In this document: piece by piece, positions 6,300 through 58,876 of the stretch
How positions within the stretch are numbered: position 1 is the stretch's first letter
Layout: each line of letters begins with the position of its first letter
Assembly: GCA_964388775.1 (NCBI GenBank)
Contig: CAYMBW010000001.1
Coordinates: 71,317 to 135,316, forward strand
Reading direction: 5' to 3'
DNA: 64,000 nt
Source of the DNA: an uncultured Candidatus Saccharibacteria bacterium
Lineage (GTDB): Bacteria > Patescibacteriota > Minisyncoccia > Minisyncoccales > PEYH01
Made by a program: the position numbers and the translations under genes
The notes under the pieces: generated by a model
Databases searched by the model: none
What the model saw: the letters and a program-made list of their open reading frames with translations, nothing else
What the model was told of the DNA's origin: nothing

Positions 6300-7208
6300 A
6301 TGACGATGCCAAAAGCATTGATCACTAGCCGTGACGACAAAGGTCGTCATGCGGTCCACTTGTTCGAGATTGAGTATGACAAAGCAAGACTCGATGATGC
6401 ACGCGCGCAGCGGCTCAACGAGCGTGGAGGCGAACTCCAGGAAGGCATCGCAAAGCTCATCGCAGAGCTCTCGGTGTCCAACCGGTTCGCTGACGAGGAA
6501 ATGGAGTCGAGTTACACCTACCCAGGGGAGTACAAGGGGCCGAAGCCGATCGAGGAGCAGATCAAGGCAATCGCCAAGATCTTTGGACTTGACCCGAGTC
6601 AGGCGTTGGAATACGCCAAGAACTTGCCGGCGCTCCCCGAGGGTGCCGAAGGGTGGTTCGCAATCCCGTCGGTCGACGCACTTGCCAAGAGGCACTTCCC
6701 CGAAGTGACTGACCCGGTTGAGAAGTACTGCCGAGCTGTTCAGCTCGTTCACGCCAAGATCGCGGAATTTCGAACGTTCTGCAACTACCGCGAGGGGCAG
6801 ATCACACCTGACCACCTTCGGATGCATGCTCATACGGCACGCACACTCGAGCAGATCGCTGAGACGCAGAAGGGTGATATCCTAATCATCGCTGCTGAGC
6901 TCGGCATGAGGCACGGGAATCCGATTGCCCGCTCTGTTCGCAGAGCTCGTGAGGTTTTCATCGATAACGAGTTCGGCCTCGGATCAGTGGCAGGAGGATC
7001 CATCCTTCTGACTCATCCAGAGAGAGAGGTTCGATGGGAACAGCTTCACATGGTTCTTCCTGGCGATGAGTTTGCCCCGGGAGCCGGTGGCGATTTCTCG
7101 GGCGCGCCCTGCTTCTACTTCCACGACGGCAGGCTCGGGTTCGGCACGTACTGGCTCGACAATGCCAATCAGAACTATGGCTCGGCGTCCGGCTTTCTCC
7201 CGCAGTAG
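6300..7208 (+). CDS. DGR target (variable) protein with C-terminal variable repeat; no signal peptide; GC-rich relative to host
   Basis: Last 41 codons (AGGDFSGAPCFYFHDGRLGFGTYWLDNANQNYGSASGFLPQ) form the VR; gene is about 55-65% GC in a roughly 34% GC genome; SD AAGGAGG. Confidence 0.85.
   Translation: MTMPKALITSRDDKGRHAVHLFEIEYDKARLDDARAQRLNERGGELQEGIAKLIAELSVSNRFADEEMESSYTYPGEYKGPKPIEEQIKAIAKIFGLDPSQALEYAKNLPALPEGAEGWFAIPSVDALAKRHFPEVTDPVEKYCRAVQLVHAKIAEFRTFCNYREGQITPDHLRMHAHTARTLEQIAETQKGDILIIAAELGMRHGNPIARSVRRAREVFIDNEFGLGSVAGGSILLTHPEREVRWEQLHMVLPGDEFAPGAGGDFSGAPCFYFHDGRLGFGTYWLDNANQNYGSASGFLPQ
7083..7205 (+). repeat. DGR variable repeat (VR), 3' end of target gene
   Basis: 123 nt aligning with 7640-7762; 12 mismatches, every one at an A in the TR copy; identical GC-rich 3' end (IMH-like). 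Confidence 0.85.
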
Positions 7209-7282
7209 TACTTTGGACTCTTGGGACTTTTGAACCCTTTTGGGGGTTTGACTTCTTGTCTCGGGGGCTAACAAGACATCAA

Positions 7283-7325
7283 TGAGGGCTGTTCACCACG
7301 CATGACAGCCCTCACTCTTTTTTTA
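7283..7325 (+). terminator. rho-independent terminator after the target gene
   Basis: GAGGGCTGT-tcaccacgcatg-ACAGCCCTC followed by a T-run; preceded by a second hairpin TCTTGT-ctcgggggcta-ACAAGA (7252-7276). Confidence 0.6.
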
Positions 7326-7639
7326 TTTTCTAAACCTGATATACTGATAGACGAGTATAGGCTAATGTATGGCAGTTTACGCCCGCCTGCAGCGCTTTGC
7401 GCAGCAATGCGGGCAGGGATTGCTATCGCCGAACTCTCTCTTCAATAAAAAGAGATTAAACAACCAGAATCTTGACGACTACGGTTTTCAAGAGCGAGTT
7501 GTCTTGAGGAGATACTGCTTGCTCTTGTCTGGGGCAGATGCCTCGAGTTTATCGAGGGGCTGCTGCCGAATAAAATACAGGAAGAAAAGATTTTCTTAAC
7601 TTCCAGTGATATGGATGGACAAGGGCAAATTAACCGGAA

Positions 7640-7762
7640 GCCGATGGCGATTTCTCGAACGCGCCCTACTTCAACTTCAACGACGGCAAGCTCAAGTTCG
7701 ACACGAACTGGCTCGACAATGCCAATCAGAACTATGGCTCGGCGTCCGGCTTTCTCCCGAAG
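7640..7762 (+). repeat. DGR template repeat (TR)
   Basis: Encodes ADGDFSNAPYFNFNDGKLKFDTNWLDNANQNYGSASGFLPK in the VR frame; the variable codons are AAC, AAG, GAC, GAT and TAC; about 29 A residues, 12 substituted in the VR. Confidence 0.85.
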
Positions 7763-7765
7763 TCT

Positions 7766-7806
7766 CTTCTCAAAGAACAAAGAGTGTCTGTTTTAAGACA
7801 CTCTTT
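7766..7806. terminator. perfect 14-bp hairpin immediately 3' of the TR, also at the 3' end of avd on the minus strand
   Basis: AACAAAGAGTGTCT-gtttta-AGACACTCTTTGTT; possible bidirectional terminator or DGR structural element. Confidence 0.5.
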
Positions 7807-7815
7807 GTTTATCAG

Positions 7816-8166
7816 TTAATTATTCAAGGACCTTATCCAACCGCCGAGCATTCGGCCGATTTCATCAATTTCTTTTTCAATCAAGATATATTTTTTATTA
7901 TCCAATGCCTTTGTATCTTTTAATAAGCGCATAAATATGCGGAGCATATCAAGCATAGAATCAATATTTCTTAAATCTTTAAGTTTTTCATTTTTAGGAA
8001 GACGGCTTACTTTAAGAATGGACTCTATAATCTCAAGCAGGGCATCCTCTGTTTTTGCATATATCGTAAATCTGTCCTGTTTAGGAATCAGGTACCTGAA
8101 TTCATGAAGTAATTTGTATAATTCATACAACTTTTTGAAAATGGGGATTTCATCTTCAATATTCAT
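7816..8166 (-). CDS. avd: DGR accessory variability determinant (Avd-like four-helix-bundle protein)
   Basis: 116 aa; C-terminus EIDEIGRMLGGWIRSLNN and overall pattern match Bordetella bAvd / 23S-IVS four-helix-bundle family (EVGRILGSWIARVN). Confidence 0.75.
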   Translation of the reverse strand: MNIEDEIPIFKKLYELYKLLHEFRYLIPKQDRFTIYAKTEDALLEIIESILKVSRLPKNEKLKDLRNIDSMLDMLRIFMRLLKDTKALDNKKYILIEKEIDEIGRMLGGWIRSLNN

Positions 8167-8187
8167 TTCTTTTAATCTTAATTATAT

Positions 8188-9240
8188 ATGGACTTATTTA
8201 ATCAAATAATTTCTTTAGAGAATTTATTTTTGGCTTGGGATAAATTCAAGAAAGGAAAGGGGAATAAATTAGATGTCCAGGAATTTGAATTTAATCTTGA
8301 AAAGAATATATTCCAACTTCACAAGGATCTTAAAAATAGATGCTATATCCATTCGCCATATGAAAGTTTTTTTATTAAAGATCCGAAAAGAAGGAATATC
8401 CATAAGGCCACTGTCCGAGATCGTGTAGTCCATCATGCTATATTTGCGATAATTAACCCGATTTTTGAGCCGACCTTTATTTCCAATTCTTTCTCTTGTA
8501 GGGTTGGCAAGGGAAATCATAAAGGCGTAGATGCCCTCGCAAGAATGATAAGGAAAGCAAGTAATAATGGTTTTAAAAATTGTTTTATTCTTAAATGCGA
8601 TATTAAAAATTTTTTTGGAACAATTGACCATAGAATTTTATTAGACATTGTCCGCAAGCGGATAAAAGACGATGACTCAATGCGGCTCTTGGAAGAAATT
8701 ATTGAAAGTTTTTCTTCCCAATATTCAACTCTTTTTGAACGAAAAGGTTTGCCGATAGGCAATTTAACTTCTCAATTGTTTGCCAATATCTACCTTAATA
8801 AATTTGACCAATTTATTAAGCACAAATTAAGGATTAAGAATTATCTAAGATATACTGATGATTTTGTAATTTTATCAGGAGATAAAATCTATTTAGGAAA
8901 ACTTATCTCAACGATTAGTTTATTTCTCTCGGATAATCTTGCTCTTAAATTACATCCTAAAAAAGTTACAATTCGCAAATTTCATCAAGGGATAGATTTC
9001 CTTGGCTACATACTTCTGCCGCATTATCGTCTTCTGCGGGCGAAAACAAGACGGCGAATATTTAGAAAGATAGGGGAGCGAATTAGGGAATATAAAAATG
9101 GGACAATCAGTGAGCAGTCCCTCGTACAATCATTACAATCATATCTTGGCGTCCTATCACATGCTAATACATATGAGCTTGAACAAGAATTGAGAAATCA
9201 ATTTTGGTTTTGGCTCAATTCGGTTCCGTCAACCCGATAG
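8188..9240 (+). CDS. DGR reverse transcriptase
   Basis: RT motifs include the DGR-specific GLPIGNLTSQLFANIYL (I/LGxxxSQ) and YxDD box RYTDDFVIL; N-terminal LFLAWDKFKKGK. Confidence 0.9.
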   Translation: MDLFNQIISLENLFLAWDKFKKGKGNKLDVQEFEFNLEKNIFQLHKDLKNRCYIHSPYESFFIKDPKRRNIHKATVRDRVVHHAIFAIINPIFEPTFISNSFSCRVGKGNHKGVDALARMIRKASNNGFKNCFILKCDIKNFFGTIDHRILLDIVRKRIKDDDSMRLLEEIIESFSSQYSTLFERKGLPIGNLTSQLFANIYLNKFDQFIKHKLRIKNYLRYTDDFVILSGDKIYLGKLISTISLFLSDNLALKLHPKKVTIRKFHQGIDFLGYILLPHYRLLRAKTRRRIFRKIGERIREYKNGTISEQSLVQSLQSYLGVLSHANTYELEQELRNQFWFWLNSVPSTR

Positions 9241-16024: not shown

Positions 16025-16096
16025 GTCCCTGTGGTTCAACGGATAAAACACCTCCCTCCGGAGGAGGAAATGGCTGTTCGAATCAGCCCAGGGACA
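16025..16096 (+). tRNA. tRNA-Arg (anticodon CCG)
   Basis: Hand-folded cloverleaf: acceptor GTCCCTG/CAGGGAC, anticodon stem CCTCC/GGAGG with loop CTCCGGA, T-arm GGCTG-TTCGAAT-CAGCC, discriminator A; CCA not encoded. Confidence 0.7.
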
Positions 16097-24470: not shown

Positions 24471-24491
24471 ACTTTTATAATTATTTATTTT

Positions 24492-24870
24492 AGTGGAGAT
24501 GGCGGGATTTGAACCCGCGTATGGGAAGGCGTTTGAATTGTTTCTACAAGCTTACCTTGATTAATGTTGTCGGTCAGAGGCCTTGAATCAAGGGAAACAG
24601 CTTCTGGCTTAGGCCTAATTTTGGCAATTCTTTTCGGCCAACGAAGAATCGCTTATCTCGATAAATTACACCCGTTTTGCTTATCGAGAGTCCGCAAAAC
24701 AGATGGGCGTTGATTATTGCTAATCAAGCGCCGACCGTGGCGTTATGCATAAGCATAAGCCGGTCTTTGAAATAAGTTGGCACTTATTTGATTCTTGGAA
24801 GTTTAGCCAGATTCCAAGAGCTGGGCTTGCGCAATTCATCAGCTGTTTCCTATCGATGCCTTTCACCCCC
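24492..24870 (-). ncRNA. ssrA: tmRNA (SsrA)
   Basis: 5' GGGGGTGAAAGGCATCG..., 3' tRNA-like end GGGTTCAAATCCCGCCATCTCCAC; candidate tag frame GCC AAC TTA TTT CAA AGA CCG GCT TAT GCT TAT GCA TAA (ANLFQRPAYAYA); adjacent to smpB. Confidence 0.7.
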
Positions 24871-26229: not shown

Positions 26230-26282
26230 GCTCTGTTAGTTCTGTTAGGGTCAGACCCTAACAGAACAGATAACATTTGCCA

Positions 26283-26310
26283 AAATTACGAGGCCCGGCC
26301 TCGTAATTTT
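26283..26310. repeat. palindromic hairpin element AAATTACGAGGCC-CG-GGCCTCGTAATTT (copy 1 of 3)
   Basis: Perfect 12-bp stem; other copies at 26353-26373 and 58691-58717; a distinct hairpin TCTGTTAGGGTC/GACCCTAACAGA at 26241-26270. Confidence 0.7.
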
Positions 26311-26352
26311 GGCAAAACGCCGGAACCCACGTCAGTGTTGAGGATTCTCACT

Positions 26353-29403: not shown

Positions 29404-32400
29404 ATGGAAATAATTTTTCCTAAAATTGAAGAGAAAATAATAAAGTTTTGGAAAGAAAACCGGATTTTTGAAAAATCCTTGGAGAAAAAAGGAGGAGATT
29501 TTATTTTTTATGAAGGTCCGCCAACGGCCAATGGAAAGCCGGGAGTTCATCACGTTTTAGCGAGAGCGCTAAAAGATATAATCTGCCGTTATCAGACAAT
29601 GAAAGGGAAAAGGGTTTTAAGAAAAGCGGGATGGGATGTGCATGGGCTTCCGGTTGAACTGGAAGTTGAAAAACAGCTTGGATTACGGGATAAGAAAGAC
29701 ATAGAGAAATACGGAATAGCGCAATTTAATAAAGAGTGCAAGAAATCCATTTGGAAATATGCCGGCGAGTGGAAGGACCTTACGGAAAGAATTGGCTATT
29801 GGCTGGATATGGAGAATCCTTATGTCACTTCCGACCCTTATTATATGGAAAGTGTTTTTTATATAATTAAAAGGGTCTGGGAAAAGGGGCTGTTGTATCA
29901 AGGATATAAAGTTCTGCCTTATTGTCCGCGTTGCGGGACCGGGCTTTCGTCCCATGAAGTGGCGCAGGGATACAAAAAAATAGCGGAGAAAGCCATATAT
30001 GTGAAGTTTAAAGTCCAAAGTCCAAAGTCAAAAGTCCAAAGTCCAAAGTCCAAGGTCAAAAATGTAGAGACGGAAGACAATACTTATTTATTGGTTTGGA
30101 CAACAACCCCGTGGACCTTGCCGGCAAATGTGGCCATAGCCGTTAATCCGAAAATTGAATATGTCTTGGCAGAAAAAAATGGAGAGCAATTAATTTTGGC
30201 TAAAGCGAGGCAGGCAGTTTTGGGTGATGATTTTGAAATAATGCAGGAATTTAAAGGAAAGGATTTGGTCGGATTAAATTATGCTCCATTGTTCGACGAG
30301 AGCGTTGTTTCCGCGCAATCAGAAGGAAAGAATATTTATCAAGTTTTGCCGGCGCACTTTGTCACCACAGAGGAAGGAACCGGATTAGTCCATATTGCTC
30401 CTGCCTTTGGTCAGGATGATATGGAACTTATAAAAAGTCAAAATACAAAACCCAAAACAAAAAGTGGCGGAAGCGGAGAATTTCCGATTTTATTACCCGT
30501 GGATGAAAGCGGTAGATTCAGGCCGGAGGTAAAAGAATGGGCAGGGATATTTGTAAAAGACGCTGACCCGTTGATTACGGAACACTTGAGACAAAAGGGG
30601 CTTCTATTTAAGGAAGAAACACATGAACATGATTATCCATTTTGCTGGAGGTGCGATACTCCGCTTTTATACTACGCCAAAAAAAGCTGGTTTATAAAAA
30701 CAACAGCTCTTAAGAATAAATTAATAAGCAATAATCAAAAAATTAACTGGATGCCTTTGCACATAAAGGATGGAAGATTCGGCGAGTGGTTAAACGAGCT
30801 TAAGGATTGGGCTATTTCCCGCGAAAGATATTGGGGCACGCCCTTACCTATTTGGGAATGCCAAAAGTGCGCCGAAAAAATAGTTATTGGTTCAAGAAGT
30901 GATTTATTAAAACAAACATTTACGGCTAACAAATATTTTGTATTAAGGCACGGAGAGGCCGTCTCTAATGTAGAGGATTCGTTTTCTTCTTGGCCGGAGG
31001 GCAAAAAAGCGCCGCTTACTGAAAAAGGAAAAGAACAGCTGAAAAAACAAATACCATCATTGAAAAATAAAAAAATTGATTTAATAATTTCGTCAGATAT
31101 TTTGCGGACTTCGCAAACCGCGGAGATAATGGCAGATGCCCTGGGCGCCCAGGTTGTTTATGATGAACGTTTACGCGAGATAAACACCGGCTTATTGAAC
31201 GGAAGAGCGGTTCAGGAGGGAGTCAAGTACTTTAACCCGGACAATAGTTTGACTCGCGACCAGATTCTTTTGAAAAGATTTGAAGCCCAATTCCCCGAGG
31301 GAGAGAATTATTCAGAGGTAAAATTAAGAGAGCTGGATTTCATAGATGATATTAATAGAAAATATAAGGGCAAAAAGATATTGCTCGTGAGCCACGAGTT
31401 GCCAATTATGATGCTTAAAAGCATTGTCCTTGGTTTGACGAATAAAGAGTTCGTTGATAACGAGGAGGACCTTTCTATCGATACGGGAAAATTTCAGGAA
31501 TTGGATTTTCGTGCTTTTCCATATAATACAGAGGGAGAATTGGATTTTCATAGGCCATATATTGATGAAATAAAATTTGCTTGTCCCAAATGCGGAGGGA
31601 TAATGCAGCGAGTGCCGGAAGTTATGGATTGCTGGCTTGACTCCGGCTCAATGCCATTCGCTCAAGGCCATTGGCCCCTTAATGACCAATTATCAATAAT
31701 CAAAAATCATTTAGCGCCGCCGGAGTTATTCCCTGCTGACTACATCAGCGAGGCGATAGACCAAACAAGAGGATGGTTTTATACTCTTTTAGCGATTTCC
31801 ACTTTATTGGGATTCGGGCCGAGCTATAAAAATGTGATTGTTTCGGGGCACGTGCTGGATGAGAATAGTCAAAAAATGTCTAAATCCAAGGGCAATGTGG
31901 TTGACCCCTGGGAGATGGTGAAGAAATATGGAGCAGACGCTTTAAGATGGTATTTTTATACGGTTAACCAGCCGGGAGACCCAAAATCATTTATTGAAAA
32001 AGATGTTGATAACGCCCTAAAGAAATTCATTCTCACTTTATGGAATTGTCATATTTTCCTCCAGACATACAAGCCCAAAAATTTAGACCTAAATTCGCAG
32101 AGATTAAAGCCAAACAATTTGCTTGACAAATGGATTCTGTCTAAACTTAATGGTTTAATTATGGAAGTAACCGTCAACATTGATGCCTATAATATTACTG
32201 CCGCAGCGCGTCTGATTGAGGATTTTGTCATAAATGATTTGTCCCTATGGCATATTAGACGTTCCCGCAATCGATTGCAGAGACCCAAGGACGCAAAAGA
32301 AGCGGAAGAATCAGCATCTATTTTAGCAGCCGTTCTTACCAATATTTGTAAATTAACTGCGCCATTTATTCCTTTTTTGAGCGAAGAGATTTATCGAGAG

Positions 32401-41949: not shown

Positions 41950-43396
41950 AAAATTCTATATCTCCACGGCCTTGCCTTATGTCAATTCCATTCCCCATAT
42001 CGGCTTTGCTTTGGAAATCATATATGCAGATGTCTTGGCCCGTTATCATCGCAGTTTAGGCGAGGATGTCTTCTTTTTGACCGGCACTGACGAAAATGGG
42101 TTGAAAATTGCTCGGGCAGCGGAAGAATCAGGAGTTCCGGTGAAAGAATTTGCCAGGAAGAATGCCGAGGCCTTCCGCGAACTCAAAGAAATCCTTAACT
42201 TGTCTTTTGATGATTTTATAAGAACCACCGAAGAAAGGCATATTAAAGCGGTTTATAAATTATGGCAGACGTGTAAGCAAGATATCTATAAAAAGAAGTA
42301 TCAAGGCCTTTATTGTGTCGGATGCGAACGATTCTATAAAGAAGAAGATTTGGCCGATGGACTGTGTCCGGAACACAAAACAAAACCGGAATTTATAGAA
42401 GAAGAAAATTATTTTTTTAAGCTTTCTAAATACGAAGAACAGCTCAAAGAATTGATAGAAGAAGATATTTTGAAAATTGTCCCGCAAACCCGCAAAAACG
42501 AAGTTTTAAGTTTTATTAACAAAGGGCTTGAGGATATTTGTATTTCTCGTTCGTCTAAGAGAGCGAGGAATTGGGGCATACCGGTGCCGGGCGACGAGAG
42601 CCAATTTTGCTGGTGCTGGTTTGATGCGGTGATAAACTATATCAGTGCTTTGGGATATGGGGTTGATGATAAAAATTTTCAGCAATGGTGGCAGGCAAAT
42701 AATAATAATAAAATTCATGTTATTGGCAAGGGAATTTTAAATTTCCATGCCCTTTACTGGCCCGCAGCCCTTCTGTCCGCTGGATTATCCCTGCCTAATA
42801 TTTTGTTTGTTCACGGTTATGTCACCGTGGGAGGGCAGAAAATGTCTAAAAGTTTGGGGAACATTGTTAGCCCCAAAGAATTAGCCGGGAAATACGGGAT
42901 TGACGCGGTGCGATACTTTTTTTTAAGAGAGGCATCTCCTTTTGATGACAGCGATTTTACCATTGAGAAATTTGAAGAGAGATATAATGCGGATTTGGCG
43001 AAGGGGCTGGGGAATCTCGTTGCGAGGGTAGTAACCCTCGCAAGTAAGTCCAAAGTCCAAAGTCCAAAGTCCAAAGTAAAAATTACAATTCAAAACCCAA
43101 AACCAAAAGAAGAAATAGCCAAAACTCAAGAGAATTATAAAAGGGCATTAGAGGAATTTAAATTTAATGAAGCGTTGCGAACAATCTGGGGGCTAATAGG
43201 ATTTTGCGATAGATATATTGAGCAGGAGCGGCCTTGGGAGGGCACGGAAAACAAATCATTAATTATTAATGATTTGTTGTTGGCAATTGAAGAAGTCGCC
43301 AAATTACTTGAACCATTCTTGCCAGAGACCTCGCAAAAAATAACGGCCCAACTCCAATCCTTAGAATCTGTTCCTCTCTTTCCCCGTTTGGCCTGA
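41921..43396 (+). CDS. metG: methionyl-tRNA synthetase (short form) with 7-nt-repeat insert
   Basis: YVNSIPHIGF (HIGH-like), KMSKSLGN, zinc knuckle CVGCERF...CPEH; SKSKVQSPKSKVKI encoded by GTCCAAA repeats at 43048-43075. Confidence 0.9.
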   Translation: MSKEMAKKNKKFYISTALPYVNSIPHIGFALEIIYADVLARYHRSLGEDVFFLTGTDENGLKIARAAEESGVPVKEFARKNAEAFRELKEILNLSFDDFIRTTEERHIKAVYKLWQTCKQDIYKKKYQGLYCVGCERFYKEEDLADGLCPEHKTKPEFIEEENYFFKLSKYEEQLKELIEEDILKIVPQTRKNEVLSFINKGLEDICISRSSKRARNWGIPVPGDESQFCWCWFDAVINYISALGYGVDDKNFQQWWQANNNNKIHVIGKGILNFHALYWPAALLSAGLSLPNILFVHGYVTVGGQKMSKSLGNIVSPKELAGKYGIDAVRYFFLREASPFDDSDFTIEKFEERYNADLAKGLGNLVARVVTLASKSKVQSPKSKVKITIQNPKPKEEIAKTQENYKRALEEFKFNEALRTIWGLIGFCDRYIEQERPWEGTENKSLIINDLLLAIEEVAKLLEPFLPETSQKITAQLQSLESVPLFPRLA

Positions 43397-44487: not shown

Positions 44488-44512
44488 ACCGAGCCTAGCT
44501 CGGTTTTTTTTA
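44488..44512 (+). terminator. rho-independent terminator
   Basis: ACCGAGC-cta-GCTCGGT followed by TTTTTTTT. Confidence 0.7.
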
Positions 44513-44541
44513 TTGAAAAATTTGGGGATTCTGGATAGAAT
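44513..44541 (+). promoter_or_regulatory. promoter copy 1 (TTGAAA, 17 nt, TAGAAT); duplicate of the leuS promoter
   Basis: 40-nt direct repeat with 45469-45508 (TTATTGAAAAATTTGGGGATTYTG..TAGAAT). Confidence 0.5.
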
Positions 44542-44598: not shown

Positions 44599-44620
44599 TT
44601 CGTTACCGAGTAACGAAACG
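44599..44620 (+). repeat. REP-like palindrome TTCGTTACCGAGTAACGAAA (copy 1)
   Basis: Second direct copy at 44640-44660; inverted copy at 45413-45431 on the far side of the transposase gene. Confidence 0.7.
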
Positions 44621-44639
44621 ATATTACAGATATTAGATA

Positions 44640-44660
44640 TTCGTTACCGAGTAACGAAAT
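44640..44660 (+). repeat. REP-like palindrome (copy 2)
   Basis: TCGTTACCGAGTAACGAAAT. Confidence 0.7.
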
Positions 44661-44699: not shown

Positions 44700-45383
44700 A
44701 TGAGAAAAACGCAATTGGTTTCGGGAGAATATTATCATATCTATAATCACGGAGTTGATGATCGTAAAGTTTTTGAAAATAATACTGATTTTATGAGAGC
44801 AGCAGTCAATCTAACGGTTTTTAATGATGCGAAGTCTTCTCCCGGAATACTTTCTCGTTTTGTTAAAGACCCCTCAAAACTTATTGATTCCTATATGCCC
44901 GATAATCGAGAACGGTTGATCGATATTATTGCTTTCACATTAAACTCTAATCATTATCATCTTTTTGTAAGGCAAAAAGCTGAAAAAGGAATTTCTCGTT
45001 TTATGCATTCTTTTGACAAAGGTTATGCCCGCTATTTTAATCTTAAAAACGATCGAAGGGGCGCGCTTTGGGAAGGCAGTTTTGGAATTAAACTAATTGA
45101 TAATGAGTCCTATTTTTTTCACATCATGGACTATGTCCATCTGAATGTTCTTGATAATTTCCAACCCAAGTGGCGTGATGGCAGGATAGAGAATTGGGAA
45201 AGGGCTGCTGTAGACATGAAGAATTATATTTGGTCAAGCTATCCTTATTATCGCACCGGGACAAGTCAAATTCCTTTTATGAATTTGATAATCACAAGAC
45301 CTGATTGGTTAAAGGAATATTGTCCAAAGCCAGAGGATTTTGAGAAAAGCGTTCATCTTTGGTCAATGCGAAACACTTTATGA
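44700..45383 (+). CDS. REP-associated tyrosine transposase (RAYT, IS200/IS605-like Y1 HUH transposase)
   Basis: YYHIYNHGVDDRKVF (motif I), HuH motif NHYHLFV, catalytic Tyr region NYIWSSYPYY; flanked by inverted REP palindromes. Confidence 0.7.
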   Translation: MRKTQLVSGEYYHIYNHGVDDRKVFENNTDFMRAAVNLTVFNDAKSSPGILSRFVKDPSKLIDSYMPDNRERLIDIIAFTLNSNHYHLFVRQKAEKGISRFMHSFDKGYARYFNLKNDRRGALWEGSFGIKLIDNESYFFHIMDYVHLNVLDNFQPKWRDGRIENWERAAVDMKNYIWSSYPYYRTGTSQIPFMNLIITRPDWLKEYCPKPEDFEKSVHLWSMRNTL

Positions 45384-45412: not shown

Positions 45413-45431
45413 TCGTTACTCGGTAACGAAA
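45413..45431 (-). repeat. REP-like palindrome (inverted copy)
   Basis: TCGTTACTCGGTAACGAAAG, reverse complement of the upstream copies (the central CGA/TCG gives the orientation). Confidence 0.7.
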
Positions 45432-45474
45432 GATAACACTAAGTGGATGATGTCATATGAACCAGCGCATTTTA

Positions 45475-45503
45475 TTGAAAAATTTGGGGATTTTGCGTAG
45501 AAT
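45475..45503 (+). promoter_or_regulatory. leuS promoter (TTGAAA, 17 nt, TAGAAT) giving a leaderless or near-leaderless mRNA
   Basis: -10 hexamer ends 8 nt before the leuS ATG at 45512. Confidence 0.5.
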
Positions 45504-45511
45504 GAAGAGTA

Positions 45512-48085
45512 ATGAACAGTTATGACCCAAAAGCAATAGAGGGCAAATGGCAGGCAAAATGGGAAGAGGGGAAGATGTTTGAAGCCAAGGATTCTTCAAA
45601 AAAACCCAAGTTTTTTGTTTTGGATATGTTCCCCTATCCTTCGGGTGACGGTCTTCATGTCGGTCATCCGCGGGGATATGTGGGGACTGATGTGATTGCC
45701 CACTATATGAGGATGAAAGGATATAATGTCTTGCATCCTATGGGTTGGGATGCTTTTGGTTTGCCGGCAGAGAATTACGCCATTAAAACAGGAATTCTTC
45801 CTGCTATTTCCACAAAGAAAAACATAGCAAGATTTAAAGAGCAGATGAAGTTAATCGGCCTTTCTTATGATTGGTCGCGGGAAATTAATACCACTGACCC
45901 GAATTATTATAAATGGACTCAATGGATTTTTCTTTTACTTTTTGAACGAGGCCTTGCGTACCAAGAAACATTGCCGATTAATTGGTGTCCTTCCTGTAAA
46001 ACGGGCCTTGCCAACGAAGAAGTAGTAGCCGGCAGATGTGAGCGTTGTGGCGCGGAAGTTACGAAAAAGAACATTAAACAGTGGGTTTTGAAAATTACGG
46101 ATTATGCGGAAGAATTACTTGAAGGATTAAATAAATTGGATTGGCCGGAAAAAATAAAAGAGATGCAGAGAAATTGGATAGGGAAATCTGTTGGCGCGGA
46201 TATAATATTTCAAGTTAAAAGTCCAAAGTTAAAAGCCCAAAGTCCGAATCCGGAAATCGGAAATTTTATCAAAGTATTTACAACGAGGCCGGATACGATT
46301 TTCGGAGCGACATTTATGGTCTTAGCGCCCGAACATGAATTGGTAGAAAAAATTACCACTCCGGGACAATCGGCTCGGGTGAAGGAATATCAAGAAAATA
46401 CAAAAAACAAGATGGATATTGAGCGTCAACTTGAGGACAAAGAGAAAACAGGAGTTTTTACCGGCGCTTTCGCTATCAATCCGGCCAATAGCAAAGAAAT
46501 CCCGATTTATATTGCGGATTATGTCTTGCCTTTTTATGGCTACGGCGCAATTATGGCAGTGCCGGGGCACGATGAGAGAGATTTTTCATTCGCCAAAAAA
46601 TATAATCTGCCGATTGTAAAAGTGATAGAGGACCAAGGCCCAAAGTTCGAAGTCCAAAATTTAGAAGAAAGAGGAATAGAGGAGGTTTATGAAGGGGAGG
46701 GGATTTTGATTAACTCCGACAGATTTGACGGGACGGAATCCGAAAAGGCGGGCAAAAAGATTGTAAAATGGATAGAGGGAGCTGAGCCGACCGTGAATTA
46801 TAAATTAAGGGATTGGATATTTTCAAGACAAAGATATTGGGGAGAGCCCATCCCGCTAATTTTTTGCGAGAACTGCAAAAAATTAGCGGAAAATCCAAAG
46901 TCCAAAATTCAAAAACCAAAATTTAGCAAAGGAGAATTATTAAATCCGGGATGGATTGCTTTGCCAAAAGAGAATTTGCCTTTAGTTTTGCCGGAGCTTG
47001 AAAAATATGAGCCGACCGGCACGGGCGAGTCGCCTTTGGCAAGCCGGCCTGAGTGGGTAAAAACAATTTGTCCCAGGTGCGGCGGCCGGGCTTTCCGTGA
47101 GACCAATACAATGCCCCAGTGGGCTGGCTCTTGTTGGTATTTCCTCGCGTATGTAATGCGAGAAAATCCAAAATCCAAAATCCAAAATCCAAAATTGGTT
47201 TGGGACAAAAAGAAGATTAAATATTGGTTGCCTGTTGATTTCTATATTGGCGGGGCAGAACACGCCGTCTTACATCTTTTGTACTCCCGCTTTTGGATAA
47301 AAGTTTTATCTGACGCAAAAATTATAGAATTTGACGAGCCGTTTAAAAAGTTGGTTACCCTCGGCTTGATTTTGGCGTCCAATGGTCAAAAAATGTCCAA
47401 GTCGCGGGGCAATGTAATTAATCCAGACGATATTATTGAGCAATACGGAGCTGATGCGTTCCGTCTTTATGAAATGTTTATGGGTCCCTTCAACCAGCCG
47501 ATTGCTTGGGATACTGAAAATATCATAGGGGTTAGAAGATTTTTAGAGAAAATCTGGAAGTTTTTTGAAAAATCTCAAATTCCAAATTCCAAATCTCAAA
47601 AAAATTCCAATATTCAGAATACAAACATTGAAAGAATGCTGCATCAAACAATAAAGAAAGTTACCGGAGATATTGAAACTCAAAAATTTAATACTGCCAT
47701 TGCTTCTATGATGGAGCTTATTAATAAAATTCAAAATTCGAAAGCTCAAATTCAAATCAATACCTTAGAAACTTTTTTAAAGATTTTAGCGCCGTTTGCC
47801 CCGCATATTGCGGAAGAGCTATGGAGCAGATTGGGACATGAAGAATCTCTATTCAAGGAGAAATGGCCGGAATATAATCCGAAGATGATTGTTGAAGAAG
47901 AAGTCAAATTAGTCATTCAAATTAATGGCAAGGTTCGTGGTACGATTGTTGTTTCGGCGGATTTGCCTGGAAAAGAGGCGGTCAAATTAGCCATTGAGTC
48001 CGATGTTGCCGAAAAATGGCTTGAGAACAAAAAAATCCAAAAAACGATTTTTGTCAAAGGCAAATTAATTAATTTTGTGATTTAG
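45512..48085 (+). CDS. leuS: leucyl-tRNA synthetase with several 7-nt-repeat inserts
   Basis: HVGHPRGY (HIGH), KMSKSRGN; inserts KSPKLKAQSPNP, ENPKSKIQKPKF, ENPKSKIQNPK and KSQIPNSKSQKNSNIQ encoded by heptanucleotide repeats. Confidence 0.9.
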   Translation: MNSYDPKAIEGKWQAKWEEGKMFEAKDSSKKPKFFVLDMFPYPSGDGLHVGHPRGYVGTDVIAHYMRMKGYNVLHPMGWDAFGLPAENYAIKTGILPAISTKKNIARFKEQMKLIGLSYDWSREINTTDPNYYKWTQWIFLLLFERGLAYQETLPINWCPSCKTGLANEEVVAGRCERCGAEVTKKNIKQWVLKITDYAEELLEGLNKLDWPEKIKEMQRNWIGKSVGADIIFQVKSPKLKAQSPNPEIGNFIKVFTTRPDTIFGATFMVLAPEHELVEKITTPGQSARVKEYQENTKNKMDIERQLEDKEKTGVFTGAFAINPANSKEIPIYIADYVLPFYGYGAIMAVPGHDERDFSFAKKYNLPIVKVIEDQGPKFEVQNLEERGIEEVYEGEGILINSDRFDGTESEKAGKKIVKWIEGAEPTVNYKLRDWIFSRQRYWGEPIPLIFCENCKKLAENPKSKIQKPKFSKGELLNPGWIALPKENLPLVLPELEKYEPTGTGESPLASRPEWVKTICPRCGGRAFRETNTMPQWAGSCWYFLAYVMRENPKSKIQNPKLVWDKKKIKYWLPVDFYIGGAEHAVLHLLYSRFWIKVLSDAKIIEFDEPFKKLVTLGLILASNGQKMSKSRGNVINPDDIIEQYGADAFRLYEMFMGPFNQPIAWDTENIIGVRRFLEKIWKFFEKSQIPNSKSQKNSNIQNTNIERMLHQTIKKVTGDIETQKFNTAIASMMELINKIQNSKAQIQINTLETFLKILAPFAPHIAEELWSRLGHEESLFKEKWPEYNPKMIVEEEVKLVIQINGKVRGTIVVSADLPGKEAVKLAIESDVAEKWLENKKIQKTIFVKGKLINFVI
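48035..48084 (+). repeat. 50-bp direct repeat copy 1 (native 3' end of leuS)
   Basis: ATCCAAAAAACGATTTTTGTCAAAGGCAAATTAATTAATTTTGTGATTT identical to 48814-48863; both copies end in a stop codon (TAG vs TGA). Confidence 0.8.
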
Positions 48086-48196
48086 TCAACGGAACATTGA
48101 GGTTAATTTTATTTTTCTAATGTTTGTCCTCTGGTGTCCAGAATCTCCGGTTTTGTTTTCTTGAAAGTAGATTTTTATTGTGGTACATTAAAGGAT

Positions 48197-48412
48197 ATGA
48201 ACCATATCATCGCTAATCCAAAAGTTTTTGGAGGCAAACCCATTGTTAAGGGAACCAGGATTTCTGTTGAATTTATTATGGAATTGACCGCTTCTGGTAT
48301 GACGATTGATGAAATCGTGAAAGAATACCCGATTCTTAAGAGAGGTGATATCCTGGCAGCCATTAAATACGCCACTCAGGTCTTCAAAAAGCAAGAGCTT
48401 GTTTTTGCTTAA
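48197..48412 (+). CDS. DUF433-family small protein (putative antitoxin)
   Basis: MNHIIANPKVFGGKPIVKGTRISVEFIMELTASGMTIDEIVKEYPILKRGDILAAIKYA matches the DUF433 consensus; SD AAAGGA. Confidence 0.6.
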   Translation: MNHIIANPKVFGGKPIVKGTRISVEFIMELTASGMTIDEIVKEYPILKRGDILAAIKYATQVFKKQELVFA

Positions 48413-48420
48413 TTTTTCCT

Positions 48421-48777
48421 ATGAAATTTTTAGCTGATGCTAATATTGCTCCGAGGACAATTAAAGCTCTTAGACAAGCGGACTTTAATGTTAAGAGCAT
48501 AATCGAGGAAGGCCAAGGAGAGATATCCGACGAAAAAGTAATTAAGTTGGCCACCAAAGAGAGTCGTATCATTTTGACGCACGATAAAGATTTCGGAAAT
48601 ATTTTAATTTACCCCGTCTTAAAACACAAAGGGGTTATTTTAATTCGGCTTAGAAATCAAAGACCCCAGAATGTTATTAGACGTCTTGTTCCTTTTTTGG
48701 AGGCAATCTCTCTAAAGAAAATAAAAAATAATCTTATAATTTTAACCGAGAAAGGAATTAGAGCATATAAAGAATAA
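48421..48777 (+). CDS. DUF5615-family PIN-like protein (putative toxin partner of DUF433)
   Basis: MKFLADANIAPRTIKALRQADFNV...ILTHDKDFG; 8-nt spacing after the DUF433 gene. Confidence 0.55.
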   Translation: MKFLADANIAPRTIKALRQADFNVKSIIEEGQGEISDEKVIKLATKESRIILTHDKDFGNILIYPVLKHKGVILIRLRNQRPQNVIRRLVPFLEAISLKKIKNNLIILTEKGIRAYKE

Positions 48778-48813
48778 AAAAAGTTAATATTTATGAATTT
48801 ATTGAATAAAAAG

Positions 48814-48863
48814 ATCCAAAAAACGATTTTTGTCAAAGGCAAATTAATTAATTTTGTGATTTG
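48814..48863 (+). repeat. 50-bp direct repeat copy 2
   Basis: Identical to 48035-48084 except for the terminal stop-codon bases. Confidence 0.8.
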
Positions 48864-48886
48864 ATTGATTTTTATTTTGTTCCTTT

Positions 48887-48920
48887 ATTTTTAACTTTTC
48901 ACTTTTAATTTTTAACTTGG
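48887..48920 (+). repeat. T-rich element ATTTTTAACTTTTCAYTTTTAAYTTTTAAYTTG (second copy at 58728-58760)
   Basis: About 33-nt near-identical direct repeat in two distant intergenic regions. Confidence 0.5.
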
Positions 48921-48949
48921 ACAAGCCCGCTTTGAGGGGGCGAAGGAAT

Positions 48950-50779
48950 ATGTGCGGTATAATTGGATACATTGGTAAAAAAGATGCCCTTCCTATAATC
49001 ATGGAAGGGCTAAAGCGACTTGAGTATAGGGGATACGACTCGGCCGGAGTCGTTATTTTAGACAAAAACAATAGTGCTCAAGTTGTGAAAGCAAAAGGCA
49101 AAATCAAAGATTTGGAGGAAAAATTAAGGGGAAAAGAGATAAAAGGAAATTTCGGAATTGGACATTCAAGATGGGCAAGTCACGGGCAACCATCAGAGAT
49201 AAATGCACATCCGCATTGGGATTGCAAAAAAGAAATTTTTGTTGTCCACAATGGAATCATTGAAAATTATTCAATATTGAAGGAAGTATTAGAAAAAGAG
49301 GGGCACAAATTTATTAGCGAAACAGACACAGAAATTTTGGCTCATTTGATTGAAAAATATTTTAAGGGAAACTTGGAAGAGGCGACGCGATTAGCCCTGA
49401 AAGAAGTTGTTGGCGCTTATGCAATTGCTGTTGTTTCTCCCAAAGACCCTAATAAAATTGTTTTTGCCCGCCAGTCGAGCCCCTTGCTTGTTGGCTTGGG
49501 CGATGAAGAAAATTTTGTTGCCTCTGACGCCCCGGCAATTTTGGGGCACACAAGACAAGTTATTTATTTAGAGGATGGAGAAATGGGGGTAATTACTCCA
49601 AATGATTTTCAGATTTTTAACTTAAATAGGGAAATAATAAACAAAGAAACTAATCATTTGGAATGGAATATTCAACAGGCAGAAAAGGGTGGCTATGAGT
49701 ATTTTATGCTTAAGGAAATTATGCAAGAGCCGGAAGCGATTAGGAATGCGATTAGAGGAAGAATAATTTTAAATGAAGGGACCGCTAAATTAGGCGGGAT
49801 AGAATCTATAGCTGATAAATTGAAAGGAATAGATAGATTAATAATCGTTGGCATGGGAAGCGCTCTCTTGGCGGGTAGAGTCGGGGAATATATGATTGAA
49901 GAATATGCCGGTATTTCAGTAGAGATTGAGGACGCTTCGGAATTTCGGTATAAGAAACAAGTGTTTCGTAAAAATGATGCAATTTTGGCAATTTCTCAAT
50001 CAGGGGAAACAGCTGACACGCTTTTTGCCGTTAAAGAAGCAAAAAGAAAAGGAATTTTATGCTTGTCTATTGTTAATGTGGTCGGCTCAAGCATTACCAG
50101 AGAGGTAGACGCCGGGATTTATAATCATGCTGGTCCGGAGATAGGAGTGGCTGCCACTAAATCCTTTGTTGCCCAATTATCTATCTTAGCGCTTTTAACT
50201 GTATTTTTAGGAAGACAAAGGGAGATGTCTTTGGTTATGGGGAAAAGAATCTTAGAAGAACTTGCCAAAATGCCGGATTTAATAATGGACGTTCTCGTGC
50301 AGAAAGATAAAATTAAAGAGCTCGCTCAAAAATATTATCAATACAAAAATTTTCTTTATCTTGGACGGAAGTATAATTCTCCGATTGCCTTTGAAGGAGC
50401 ATTAAAATTAAAAGAAATTTCTTATATCCATGCCGAAGGTCTTGTTGCAGGAGAAATGAAGCATGGTTCTATAGCAATGATAGACAAGGACTTCCCTTGC
50501 TTTGTTGTCGCCCTCAAAGACAGTGTTTATGAGAAAATGATTTCAACTATCCAAGAAATTAAAGCTAGGAACGGAAAGGTTATTGCATTGACCACGGAAG
50601 GCAATCAAGAGATTTTGAATCTAGTGGATGATTGTATTTTCATTCCAAAAATTTTAGAAATACTTACGCCTATTTTGTCAGTTATTCCTTTCCAGCTTTT
50701 CGCTTATTATGTGTCGGTTTTGCGTGGTTATGACCCGGATAAGCCGAGAAATCTGGCAAAAAGCGTTACCGTCGAATAA
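48950..50779 (+). CDS. glmS: glutamine--fructose-6-phosphate aminotransferase
   Basis: MCGIIGYIGKK N-terminal nucleophile, two SIS domains; ATG at 48950 with a GAAGGA SD. Confidence 0.9.
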   Translation: MCGIIGYIGKKDALPIIMEGLKRLEYRGYDSAGVVILDKNNSAQVVKAKGKIKDLEEKLRGKEIKGNFGIGHSRWASHGQPSEINAHPHWDCKKEIFVVHNGIIENYSILKEVLEKEGHKFISETDTEILAHLIEKYFKGNLEEATRLALKEVVGAYAIAVVSPKDPNKIVFARQSSPLLVGLGDEENFVASDAPAILGHTRQVIYLEDGEMGVITPNDFQIFNLNREIINKETNHLEWNIQQAEKGGYEYFMLKEIMQEPEAIRNAIRGRIILNEGTAKLGGIESIADKLKGIDRLIIVGMGSALLAGRVGEYMIEEYAGISVEIEDASEFRYKKQVFRKNDAILAISQSGETADTLFAVKEAKRKGILCLSIVNVVGSSITREVDAGIYNHAGPEIGVAATKSFVAQLSILALLTVFLGRQREMSLVMGKRILEELAKMPDLIMDVLVQKDKIKELAQKYYQYKNFLYLGRKYNSPIAFEGALKLKEISYIHAEGLVAGEMKHGSIAMIDKDFPCFVVALKDSVYEKMISTIQEIKARNGKVIALTTEGNQEILNLVDDCIFIPKILEILTPILSVIPFQLFAYYVSVLRGYDPDKPRNLAKSVTVE

Positions 50780-58665: not shown

Positions 58666-58690
58666 TCAATAATCACTAATCACTAATTAA

Positions 58691-58717
58691 AAATTACGAG
58701 GCCCGGCCTCGTAATTT
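58691..58717. repeat. palindromic hairpin AAATTACGAGGCCCGGCCTCGTAATTT (copy 3)
   Basis: Identical to the 26283 copy; directly after the parA stop. Confidence 0.7.
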
Positions 58718-58792
58718 TGGTTTCTCTATTTTTAACTTTTCATTTTTAACTTTTAATTTGAGCGAAGTTCGCCCAAGGCGGACAAGCGATTG

Positions 58793-58876
58793 TGCCGGAG
58801 GAGGGAATCGAACCCACAAGTCCTTGCGGACAATGGATTTTGAATCCATCGTGTTTACCTATTTCACCACTCCGGC
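58793..58876 (-). tRNA. tRNA-Leu (anticodon CAA)
   Basis: Minus strand reads GCCGGAGTGGTGAAATAGGTAAACACGATGGATTCAAAATCCATTGTCCGCAAGGACTTGTGGGTTCGATTCCCTCCTCCGGCA: 7-bp acceptor, long variable arm, T-loop TTCGATT, anticodon loop TTCAAAA. Confidence 0.8.

Follow-up and report, generated by a model that had tools for sequence, protein, structure and literature searches.

In a 64,000-nt stretch of contig CAYMBW010000001.1 from an uncultured Candidatus Saccharibacteria bacterium (the whole of this stretch is hereafter the window), we found a two-gene toxin-antitoxin (TA) cassette between leuS, which encodes leucyl-tRNA synthetase (LeuRS), and glmS. The cassette consists of a DUF433 gene followed by a DUF5615 gene, and it is flanked on both sides by copies of the leuS 3' end in direct orientation. 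This repeat-flanked structure is a real insertion. We think it probable that a TA cassette of ~0.65 kb was acquired horizontally, was inserted at the leuS-glmS junction with a target duplication of ~59 bp, and later served as an addiction module. Throughout, "target duplication" names the product of the insertion and not its mechanism.

The leuS 3' end is repeated beyond the cassette

An initial annotation of this DNA had described a perfect repeat of 50 nt at the leuS terminus. The recurrence of the leuS end holds, but its length needs correction: the exact direct repeat is 49 nt (48035-48083 and 48814-48862), and the 50th base is an A in copy 1 and a G in copy 2. Because of this difference, copy 1 ends in TAG (48083-48085) and copy 2 in TGA (48862-48864), the two stop codons that the annotation had assigned to them. 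The match also continues leftward in register for 10 nt, yielding a near-exact repeat of 59 nt (48025-48083 and 48804-48862) with two mismatches (97% identity), neither of which changes the amino acid read in the leuS frame (AAC/AAT, Asn; AAA/AAG, Lys). A 49-nt match had no equivalent in 100 dinucleotide-preserving shuffles, and ~1e-19 such matches are expected from base composition. The leuS tail repeat is present in just two copies within the 64 kb.

We considered that the second copy might have arisen as an artefact of assembly, the one circumstance that the initial annotation had named as refuting its reading; beyond that statement, we found nothing specific that speaks for an artefact, and we put its chance at practically nil. 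The leuS-DUF433-DUF5615-glmS order, with both repeat copies at the same spacing, occurs in all 18-24 contigs that encode the exact toxin, LeuRS and GlmS, with the same structure seen in 23-24 contigs, and those with the identical arrangement come from at least three separately assembled JGI samples (3300028193, 3300005645 and 3300028299). Since the same structure recurs in ~24 contigs from at least three independent metagenome assemblies, we conclude that the second copy is not an assembly artefact. Moreover, reads and typical k-mers exceed the 49-nt repeat in length, the copies differ at two positions and in their stop codon, and their flanks are unique.

leuS and glmS nearly abut in related genomes

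We compared the junction with that of relatives, and found that in ~20 related Patescibacteria genomes (including L005, L010, L022, L023, L029-L031, L033-L035, L037, L044, L046, L070 and L093) the leuS stop codon lies 0-15 bp from the glmS ATG or overlaps it, and the leuS tail is single-copy. The conserved single-copy LeuRS tail in these relatives reads ...KKIQKTIFVK.KLINFV. Since leuS and glmS nearly abut in ~20 relatives, it is the TA pair that was inserted. Thus, the proposal that the cassette entered at the leuS terminus is borne out, both by the tight, single-tailed junction in relatives (at LeuRS identities of 70% or less) and by the presence of a related cassette in an unrelated context (see below). 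The accompanying proposal, that the duplication preserves the LeuRS C-terminus, also holds: the 19-20 terminal residues, ...KKIQKTIFVKGKLINFVI, are conserved in relatives, and the gene is completed by copy 1. Because the breakpoint lies inside leuS and the two genes nearly touch, only an insertion that duplicates its target leaves the LeuRS C-terminus (and glmS) intact.

Some relatives bear other inserts at this junction, comprising membrane proteins, a Nudix gene, argS or a transcription regulator, but the leuS-tail repeat is absent from these other leuS-glmS inserts. Thus, the junction is variable and the duplication is specific to the TA event.

The closest LeuRS proteins, from Patescibacteria/Parcubacteria metagenome-assembled genomes (MAGs), are 63-70% identical to that of the window, with the nearest at 69-70%; a search for LeuRS homologues among 5.8 billion proteins returned nothing between 70% and 100% identity. 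Likewise, a degenerate-codon scan of the metagenome contigs for the leuS tail gave 0 matches, and the collection evidently does not include the source organism.

We noted other structures at leuS and glmS. A Y1_Tnp (IS200/RAYT-like) gene lies upstream of leuS in the window (44700-45383), with three copies of the hairpin CGTTACCGAGTAACG, at 44601, at 44642 and, inverted, at 45414. This gene is bracketed by a 34-nt direct repeat (44508-44541 and 45470-45503, 3 mismatches) that corresponds to the TTGAAA-17-TAGAAT leuS promoter, and whose second copy is separated from the leuS ATG by 8 nt. Relatives lack this insertion, which places a second repeat-flanked unit at the opposite end of leuS from the cassette. 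A LeuRS of 1067 aa from another metagenome (P0111; L092, 2019-5222) has a Y1_Tnp domain called between its catalytic and editing domains. In three relatives, glmS is interrupted after ~codon 72 by ~1.4 kb (L008, 8081-9471; L024, 7604-8982; L032, 7604-9066), which may be an intein or other intervening element. Finally, a 92-nt direct repeat (89/92) surrounds the whole of leuS in an unrelated MAG (L051, 1376-1467 and 3974-4065).

The insert is a self-contained toxin-antitoxin cassette

The insert is 720 bp in length, and its sole genes are the two TA genes (Table 1), both on one strand and with the antitoxin gene 8 nt ahead of the toxin gene. Their coordinates in the initial annotation were correct, as judged from open reading frames (ORFs) and Pfam matches, and the profile comparison that it had proposed placed both proteins far above threshold. 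The antitoxin scored 76.9 bits against PF04255 (cut-off 23.6) and covered the full profile (1-56), while the toxin scored 92.8 bits against PF18480 (cut-off 23.8) and 30.2 bits against PF18478 (cut-off 26.2). The toxin keeps all 21 residues that are invariant in the family (22 homologues, including the window protein), among them D6, D37, D55, D57 and the THDKDFG motif; by analogy with the PIN superfamily, we assume that the four aspartates are residues of the catalytic type.

Table 1. Features of the leuS-glmS locus (positions in the window)
Feature	Positions	Strand	Description
leuS (leucyl-tRNA synthetase, 857 aa), intact	45512-48085	+	Pfam tRNA-synt_1, LeuRS editing domain, Anticodon_1; tail is copy 1 (59 nt), stop codon TAG at 48083-48085
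Direct repeat copy 1	48025-48083	+	59 nt, genuine leuS 3' end; 48035-48083 exact versus copy 2
Left junction	48086-48152	+	67 nt, without homology to the related cassette in L089
Cassette core (promoter and both genes)	48153-48780	+	82.5% nt identity to the L088/L089/L095 cassette
Sigma-70-like promoter	48161-48189	+	TTGAAA-17 nt-TACATT, TG extended -10; consensus match only; conserved in L089
DUF433 (COG2442) gene, 71 aa, predicted DNA-binding antitoxin	48197-48412	+	Pfam PF04255, E=1.1e-21
DUF5615/PIN_10 (COG4634, Mut7-C-like PIN) gene, 118 aa, predicted nuclease toxin	48421-48777	+	PF18480 E=1.5e-26; PF18478 E=4.9e-7
Right junction	48781-48803	+	23 nt, A/T-rich, without conserved motif
Direct repeat copy 2 and TGA	48804-48864	+	Copy 48804-48862, stop 48862-48864; non-genic pseudo-copy of leuS 3' end
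Spacer before glmS	48865-48949	+	85 nt; reverse-orientation copy of the 7-nt-periodic repeat at 48889-48919
glmS (609 aa)	48950-50779	+	Pfam GATase and SIS domains; abuts leuS in related genomes

A related cassette lies beside yraN/comM-like genes in other metagenomes; its toxin is 85% identical to that of the window in protein sequence (82.5% in DNA). The DNA homology between the two cassettes is limited to 48153-48780, beginning at the promoter and ending at the toxin stop, and the flanks of this core, 67 nt on its left and 23 nt on its right, occur only in the window. Because the homologous core sits in an unrelated context, with homology that ends at the promoter and the toxin stop, the cassette is a mobile module. 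The core also has a lower GC content than the window (34.7% versus 39.1%). We found no pair of near-identical cassettes in different contexts, and therefore no evidence of very recent transposition; nor was the cassette family found on viral contigs. Within the insert there is no recombinase gene, and its ends have no terminal inverted repeats, att-like core or attC-like palindrome. Neither the insert nor the 10 kb to each side of it contains an integrase gene, no terminator-like site lies between leuS and glmS, and an Rfam scan detected no glmS ribozyme or other Rfam family near the locus.

The two genes had been described as a recognised TA pairing, a view that is upheld by both Pfam matches, by conserved adjacency, in that ~45 of 56 related loci have a DUF433 gene directly upstream of the toxin gene, at a distance of 0-60 nt, and by the published pairing of PIN domains with COG2442. 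PIN-COG2442 (DUF433) is a predicted VapBC-type TA pairing (PMC2701414), COG4634/PIN_10 is a Mut7-C-like PIN group (PMC5499597), and one PIN-COG2442 pair, VapBC10 of Synechocystis, has been validated (PMC3834315). Like the window pair, the PIN-COG2442 VapBC systems (VapBC10; VapBC45, Rv2018/Rv2019, of M. tuberculosis) have a short DUF433 protein, a three-helix DNA-binding protein, encoded upstream and a PIN-like nuclease of ~115 aa encoded downstream, with the same Pfam families and conserved acidic residues. Thus, by family, gene order and conserved acidic residues, the pair appears to be a VapBC-like type II TA system, with toxicity and neutralisation predicted from the characterised relatives. 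In contrast to VapBC10, we found no solved structure or biochemistry for the DUF5615/COG4634 branch, so that toxicity of the window protein is itself a prediction. Sequence searches of the PDB gave only spurious alphaRep matches for the toxin and none for the antitoxin, and we found no paper that mentions DUF433 together with DUF5615.

Flanking repeats recur around related cassettes

The initial annotation had suggested a search for other loci with target duplications of 40-50 bp. We examined related cassettes for flanking repeats. A profile scan of metagenome contigs identified 56 loci with related toxins; at each locus we looked for similarity between the 500 nt preceding the antitoxin gene and the 2.5 kb that follow the toxin gene, and after duplicate contigs were collapsed, 25 distinct contexts with usable flanks were available. 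Eight of these 25 contexts have same-strand flanking direct repeats, of 38-160 nt. In contrast, a repeat of any kind was found at only one of 500 random pseudo-cassette positions, drawn from 80 leuS-centred loci, and this was of 25 nt (Fisher's test, 8/25 versus 1/500, P = 7e-11; P = 4e-6 when only the four clear gene-end duplications are counted).

Duplication of a gene end is unambiguous at four events. These are the window leuS (55-59 nt in this survey), ychF in L110 (48 nt, 96% identity, also in L111), in which the repeat comprises the last 45 nt plus the TAG of the gene, a histidine kinase gene in L090 (98 nt, 94%), in which it spans the 3' end and stop, and a ferredoxin gene in L107, in which it holds the start codon and 11 codons (51 nt, 94%). 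The ferredoxin event is also represented by L096, where the repeat is reduced to 26 nt at 92% identity; since L107 and L096 descend from the same insertion, we conclude that the repeat decays with time. At L110, the ancestral ychF terminator comes after copy 2, and relatives with 75-76% YchF identity have no cassette and a single ychF tail. Both substitutions at this locus are in the pseudo-copy (copy 2), because the relative L151 matches copy 1. A further repeat, in L139, is 53 nt in length and 100% identical.

The geometry of these loci is constant: 31-113 nt separate the end of copy 1 from the antitoxin ATG, and in the simple cases the distance from the toxin stop to copy 2 is 0-26 nt. We found no common motif at the junctions across loci, and no common core among the repeats at the eight loci beyond A/T-rich hexamers.

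Several of the surveyed contigs have additional structures beside their cassettes. In L125, a 56-codon C-terminal fragment of a histidine kinase (1294-1464) lies directly after the cassette, inside the flanking repeats, and looks like a target remnant that the cassette took along from a previous insertion (compare L090). In L108 (4859-5849; also in L109), a predicted TA pair of another kind (DUF4258/DUF2283) together with cutA1 lies within a 53-nt direct repeat (52/53), which holds the TAGAAT -10 element and ATG of flanking genes. Two strains, L112 (6029-8242) and L113 (6156-6645), are 99.7% identical through a related TA cassette but part ways 169 nt after the toxin stop, with a 2.2-kb replacement in one and a 0.5-kb replacement in the other, placing a variable region next to the cassette.

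A proposed course of events and its alternatives

We propose that a self-contained cassette, with its promoter, DUF433 antitoxin and DUF5615 PIN-like toxin, would have been acquired as foreign DNA and joined at two target positions ~59 nt apart in the leuS-glmS junction. The duplication may have arisen either from a staggered break followed by fill-in and joining or from two-ended illegitimate recombination of the incoming DNA. Copy 1 would then complete leuS, with its TAG composed of the last T of the repeat and the first two bases of the insert, while copy 2 would be a dead remnant retaining the original TGA; the excised or empty allele would read leuS (AAC AAA AAA...) joined directly to TGA-TTGATTTTT. 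If the pair confers VapBC-like addiction, the antitoxin would neutralise the nuclease and probably repress the promoter, and loss of the cassette, for instance by recombination between the 49-bp repeats, would free the longer-lived toxin and cause death or arrest. Since the repeats permit precise deletion and post-segregational killing would select against loss, such footprints may be expected to persist preferentially around TA or restriction-modification (RM) cargo.

Several observations weigh against this course of events. There is no nucleotide-level empty site among the sequences searched, as all contigs with identical LeuRS or GlmS bear the insert. The 67-nt left junction (48086-48152) is not accounted for by the proposed insertion. 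Across the survey, 17 of the 25 contexts have no repeat, reflecting decay or another insertion route, and three of the eight repeat-flanked events are ambiguous: the repeats in L097 (187 nt, 84%) and L119 (161 nt) coincide with the C-termini of paralogous genes, and that in L125 (54 nt) has a third copy nearby. Both toxicity and addiction of the pair in bacteria of the Candidate Phyla Radiation (CPR) are properties that we infer. Furthermore, none of the differences between the two copies in the window would alter the LeuRS tail (two are synonymous in the leuS frame, and one exchanges stop for stop), which would also fit descent of copy 2 or copy 1 from a diverged leuS allele.

As an alternative, the cassette may have arrived by homologous recombination (Campbell-type or homology-facilitated illegitimate) with DNA from a diverged donor in which it already lay behind leuS. 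A crossover inside the 49-bp core would then leave one host copy and one donor copy, with no duplication in situ. The silent differences sit at the repeat edges (left, AAC/AAT and AAA/AAG; right, TAG/TGA), as in attL/attR-like hybrids; the differences at L090 include two synonymous changes and a three-base Lys-to-Arg change; and the histidine kinase fragment in L125 suggests that cassettes can carry old target remnants. However, the bias toward silent differences across loci is marginal (P ~0.05-0.27 by our own estimate) and thus statistically weak, and at L110 the differences are both derived in the pseudo-copy, as expected for duplication in situ followed by decay. Moreover, no donor-type leuS allele is present among the 5.8 billion proteins, and a donor would itself require an original insertion behind leuS. 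We therefore regard a donor allele as unlikely.

For integrative elements, the usual target is the 3' end of a conserved gene, which they replace with one of their own while leaving behind repeats of tens of base pairs, and TA modules are common island cargo. The repeats might instead be the attL and attR of a site-specific island that targeted the leuS 3' end and later lost all but its TA module, or that was mobilised in trans (in the manner of a cis-mobilisable element, CIME). The presence of a Y1-type transposase gene just upstream of leuS might seem to favor such an origin, but transposases of the Y1/IS200 type do not generate duplications of this kind, and the gene is flanked by a different repeat pair, of 34 nt. 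An island origin is also hard to reconcile with the lack of an integrase in and around the insert, with cassette ends that are not conserved and an insert that is essentially a promoter and two genes, and with independent insertions that use unrelated targets and repeats of differing lengths. Because the repeats have no common core, this origin is largely refuted, and we consider it very improbable. A functional reason for the retention of copy 2, as a 23-codon leader ORF or as the native upstream context for glmS expression, is more improbable still. An ATG at 48794 does start a 23-codon mini-ORF (48794-48864) that runs through copy 2 to a stop, the leuS 3' end is directly upstream of glmS in relatives, and the 49-nt core is still perfect. 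Yet no ribosome-binding site precedes this ATG, copy 2 lies 85 nt away from the glmS ATG across a spacer that has an AAGGA of its own, no Rfam family matches here, and the pseudo-copies at other loci are found on either side of the cassette and gather substitutions.

Thus, we favor insertion of the TA cassette with duplication of its target. We also entertained, as a rather doubtful extension, the idea that the DUF433-DUF5615 pair is a minimal transposase-free element that promotes its own insertion, or that a Patescibacteria host pathway integrates DNA with duplications of 40-160 bp. In the self-mobilising version, the PIN/FEN-like nuclease and the small DNA-binding protein could nick the target tens of bases apart at gene boundaries. 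If true, either version would explain how insertion with long target duplication comes about.

Other features of the window

The window also contains a complete diversity-generating retroelement (DGR) at 6300-9240. Its target gene (6300-7208) has a GC content of 58%, compared to 39% for the window, and no Pfam match; the variable repeat (~7077-7206) and the template repeat (~7634-7763) are 130 nt long and 90% identical, with differences that fall, by eye, at template A positions, and they are followed by a bAvd gene (7816-8166, minus strand) and a reverse transcriptase gene (8188-9240).

A 7-nt-periodic repeat, (AAAGTCC/AAAGTTA)n, is dispersed through the window at 30004-30066, 43046-43087, 46210-46265, 46875-46937, 47162-47200, 47568-47625, 48889-48919 and ~58730-58758. 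It lies in frame inside metG and at four sites in leuS, where it encodes inserts resembling KSKVQSPKSK, and is also found reversed in intergenic DNA, including the spacer between copy 2 and glmS. A perfect 31-nt palindrome, AAAATTACGAGGCC-CG-GCCTCGTAATTTT, is present at 26282-26312 and again 32 kb away at 58690-58720, and is probably a shared bidirectional terminator. The only Rfam matches in the window are to a transfer-messenger RNA (tmRNA; 24491-24870, minus strand) and two tRNAs (16025-16096, plus strand; 58793-58876, minus strand).

Discussion

Insertion with long target duplication has been described for RM gene units (Nobusato et al. 2000, Gene 259:99; Furuta, Abe and Kobayashi 2010, NAR, PMC2853133). 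These units lie between direct repeats of more than 30 bp and of variable length, have no mobility genes, and occur mostly in naturally competent bacteria (Nobusato et al. 2000; PMC2853133); the repeats often span start or stop sites and leave the target gene intact, as in an example from H. influenzae with 46-bp repeats that overlap the 3' end of a gene (PMC2853133). Like these units, the window cassette is a small, presumably addictive unit between target repeats of more than 30 bp, with no transposase, integrase or inverted ends. Measured by the criteria of Furuta and colleagues, repeats longer than 30 bp flank the unit (49 nt exact, 59 nt at 97%), and the insert, at 720 bp, is well within 20 kb and has no genes or ends of mobile elements. 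As for the empty site, the tail is present in two copies in the 64 kb, and relatives, at LeuRS identities of 70% or less, are single-tailed. The RM units differ from the window in that the cargo here is a type II TA pair and the host a member of the Patescibacteria (CPR). The cassette thus shares the mode of insertion but falls outside the RM set, because its cargo is a TA pair. The explanation offered for RM units, double-strand breakage by the restriction enzyme (PMC2853133), is not obviously applicable here, since the PIN-like toxin is presumably directed at RNA. In the searchable literature, we found this long-target-duplication mode stated only for RM systems.

Other mobile units resemble the cassette in part. 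Islands and CIMEs at gene 3' ends similarly have repeats that include the end of a housekeeping gene, reconstitute that gene and can hold a TA module, but they have a recombinase and a conserved att core, both of which are missing from the window insert, which is only 0.72 kb. The TA cassettes of chromosomal integrons are likewise two-gene units that behave as mobile cassettes; however, they are promoter-poor, whereas the window cassette has its own promoter and has no attC-like imperfect palindrome, intI or cassette array. Unlike insertion sequences and DNA transposons, the window insert has no transposase or terminal inverted repeats, and the length of the duplication varies between events, from 38 to ~160 nt, in place of a short, fixed target-site duplication.

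Neither the TA family nor the mode of insertion is new in itself; the novelty lies in their combination, in the host phylum and in the footprint's statistical recurrence for one TA family. The movement of chromosomal TA pairs that have no recognisable mobility gene is a standing puzzle, and the finding extends the long-target-duplication mode to TA systems of the classical kind and to the Patescibacteria, with their ultra-compact genomes. Because neighbouring essential genes in these genomes are only a few bases apart, an insertion may be harmless only if it duplicates its target. The finding also suggests a simple reason for the link between this mode and addictive cargo, namely that an insert between direct repeats is readily deleted except where losing it is lethal. 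Because the cassette is small and recurs, its mechanism can be approached by experiment.

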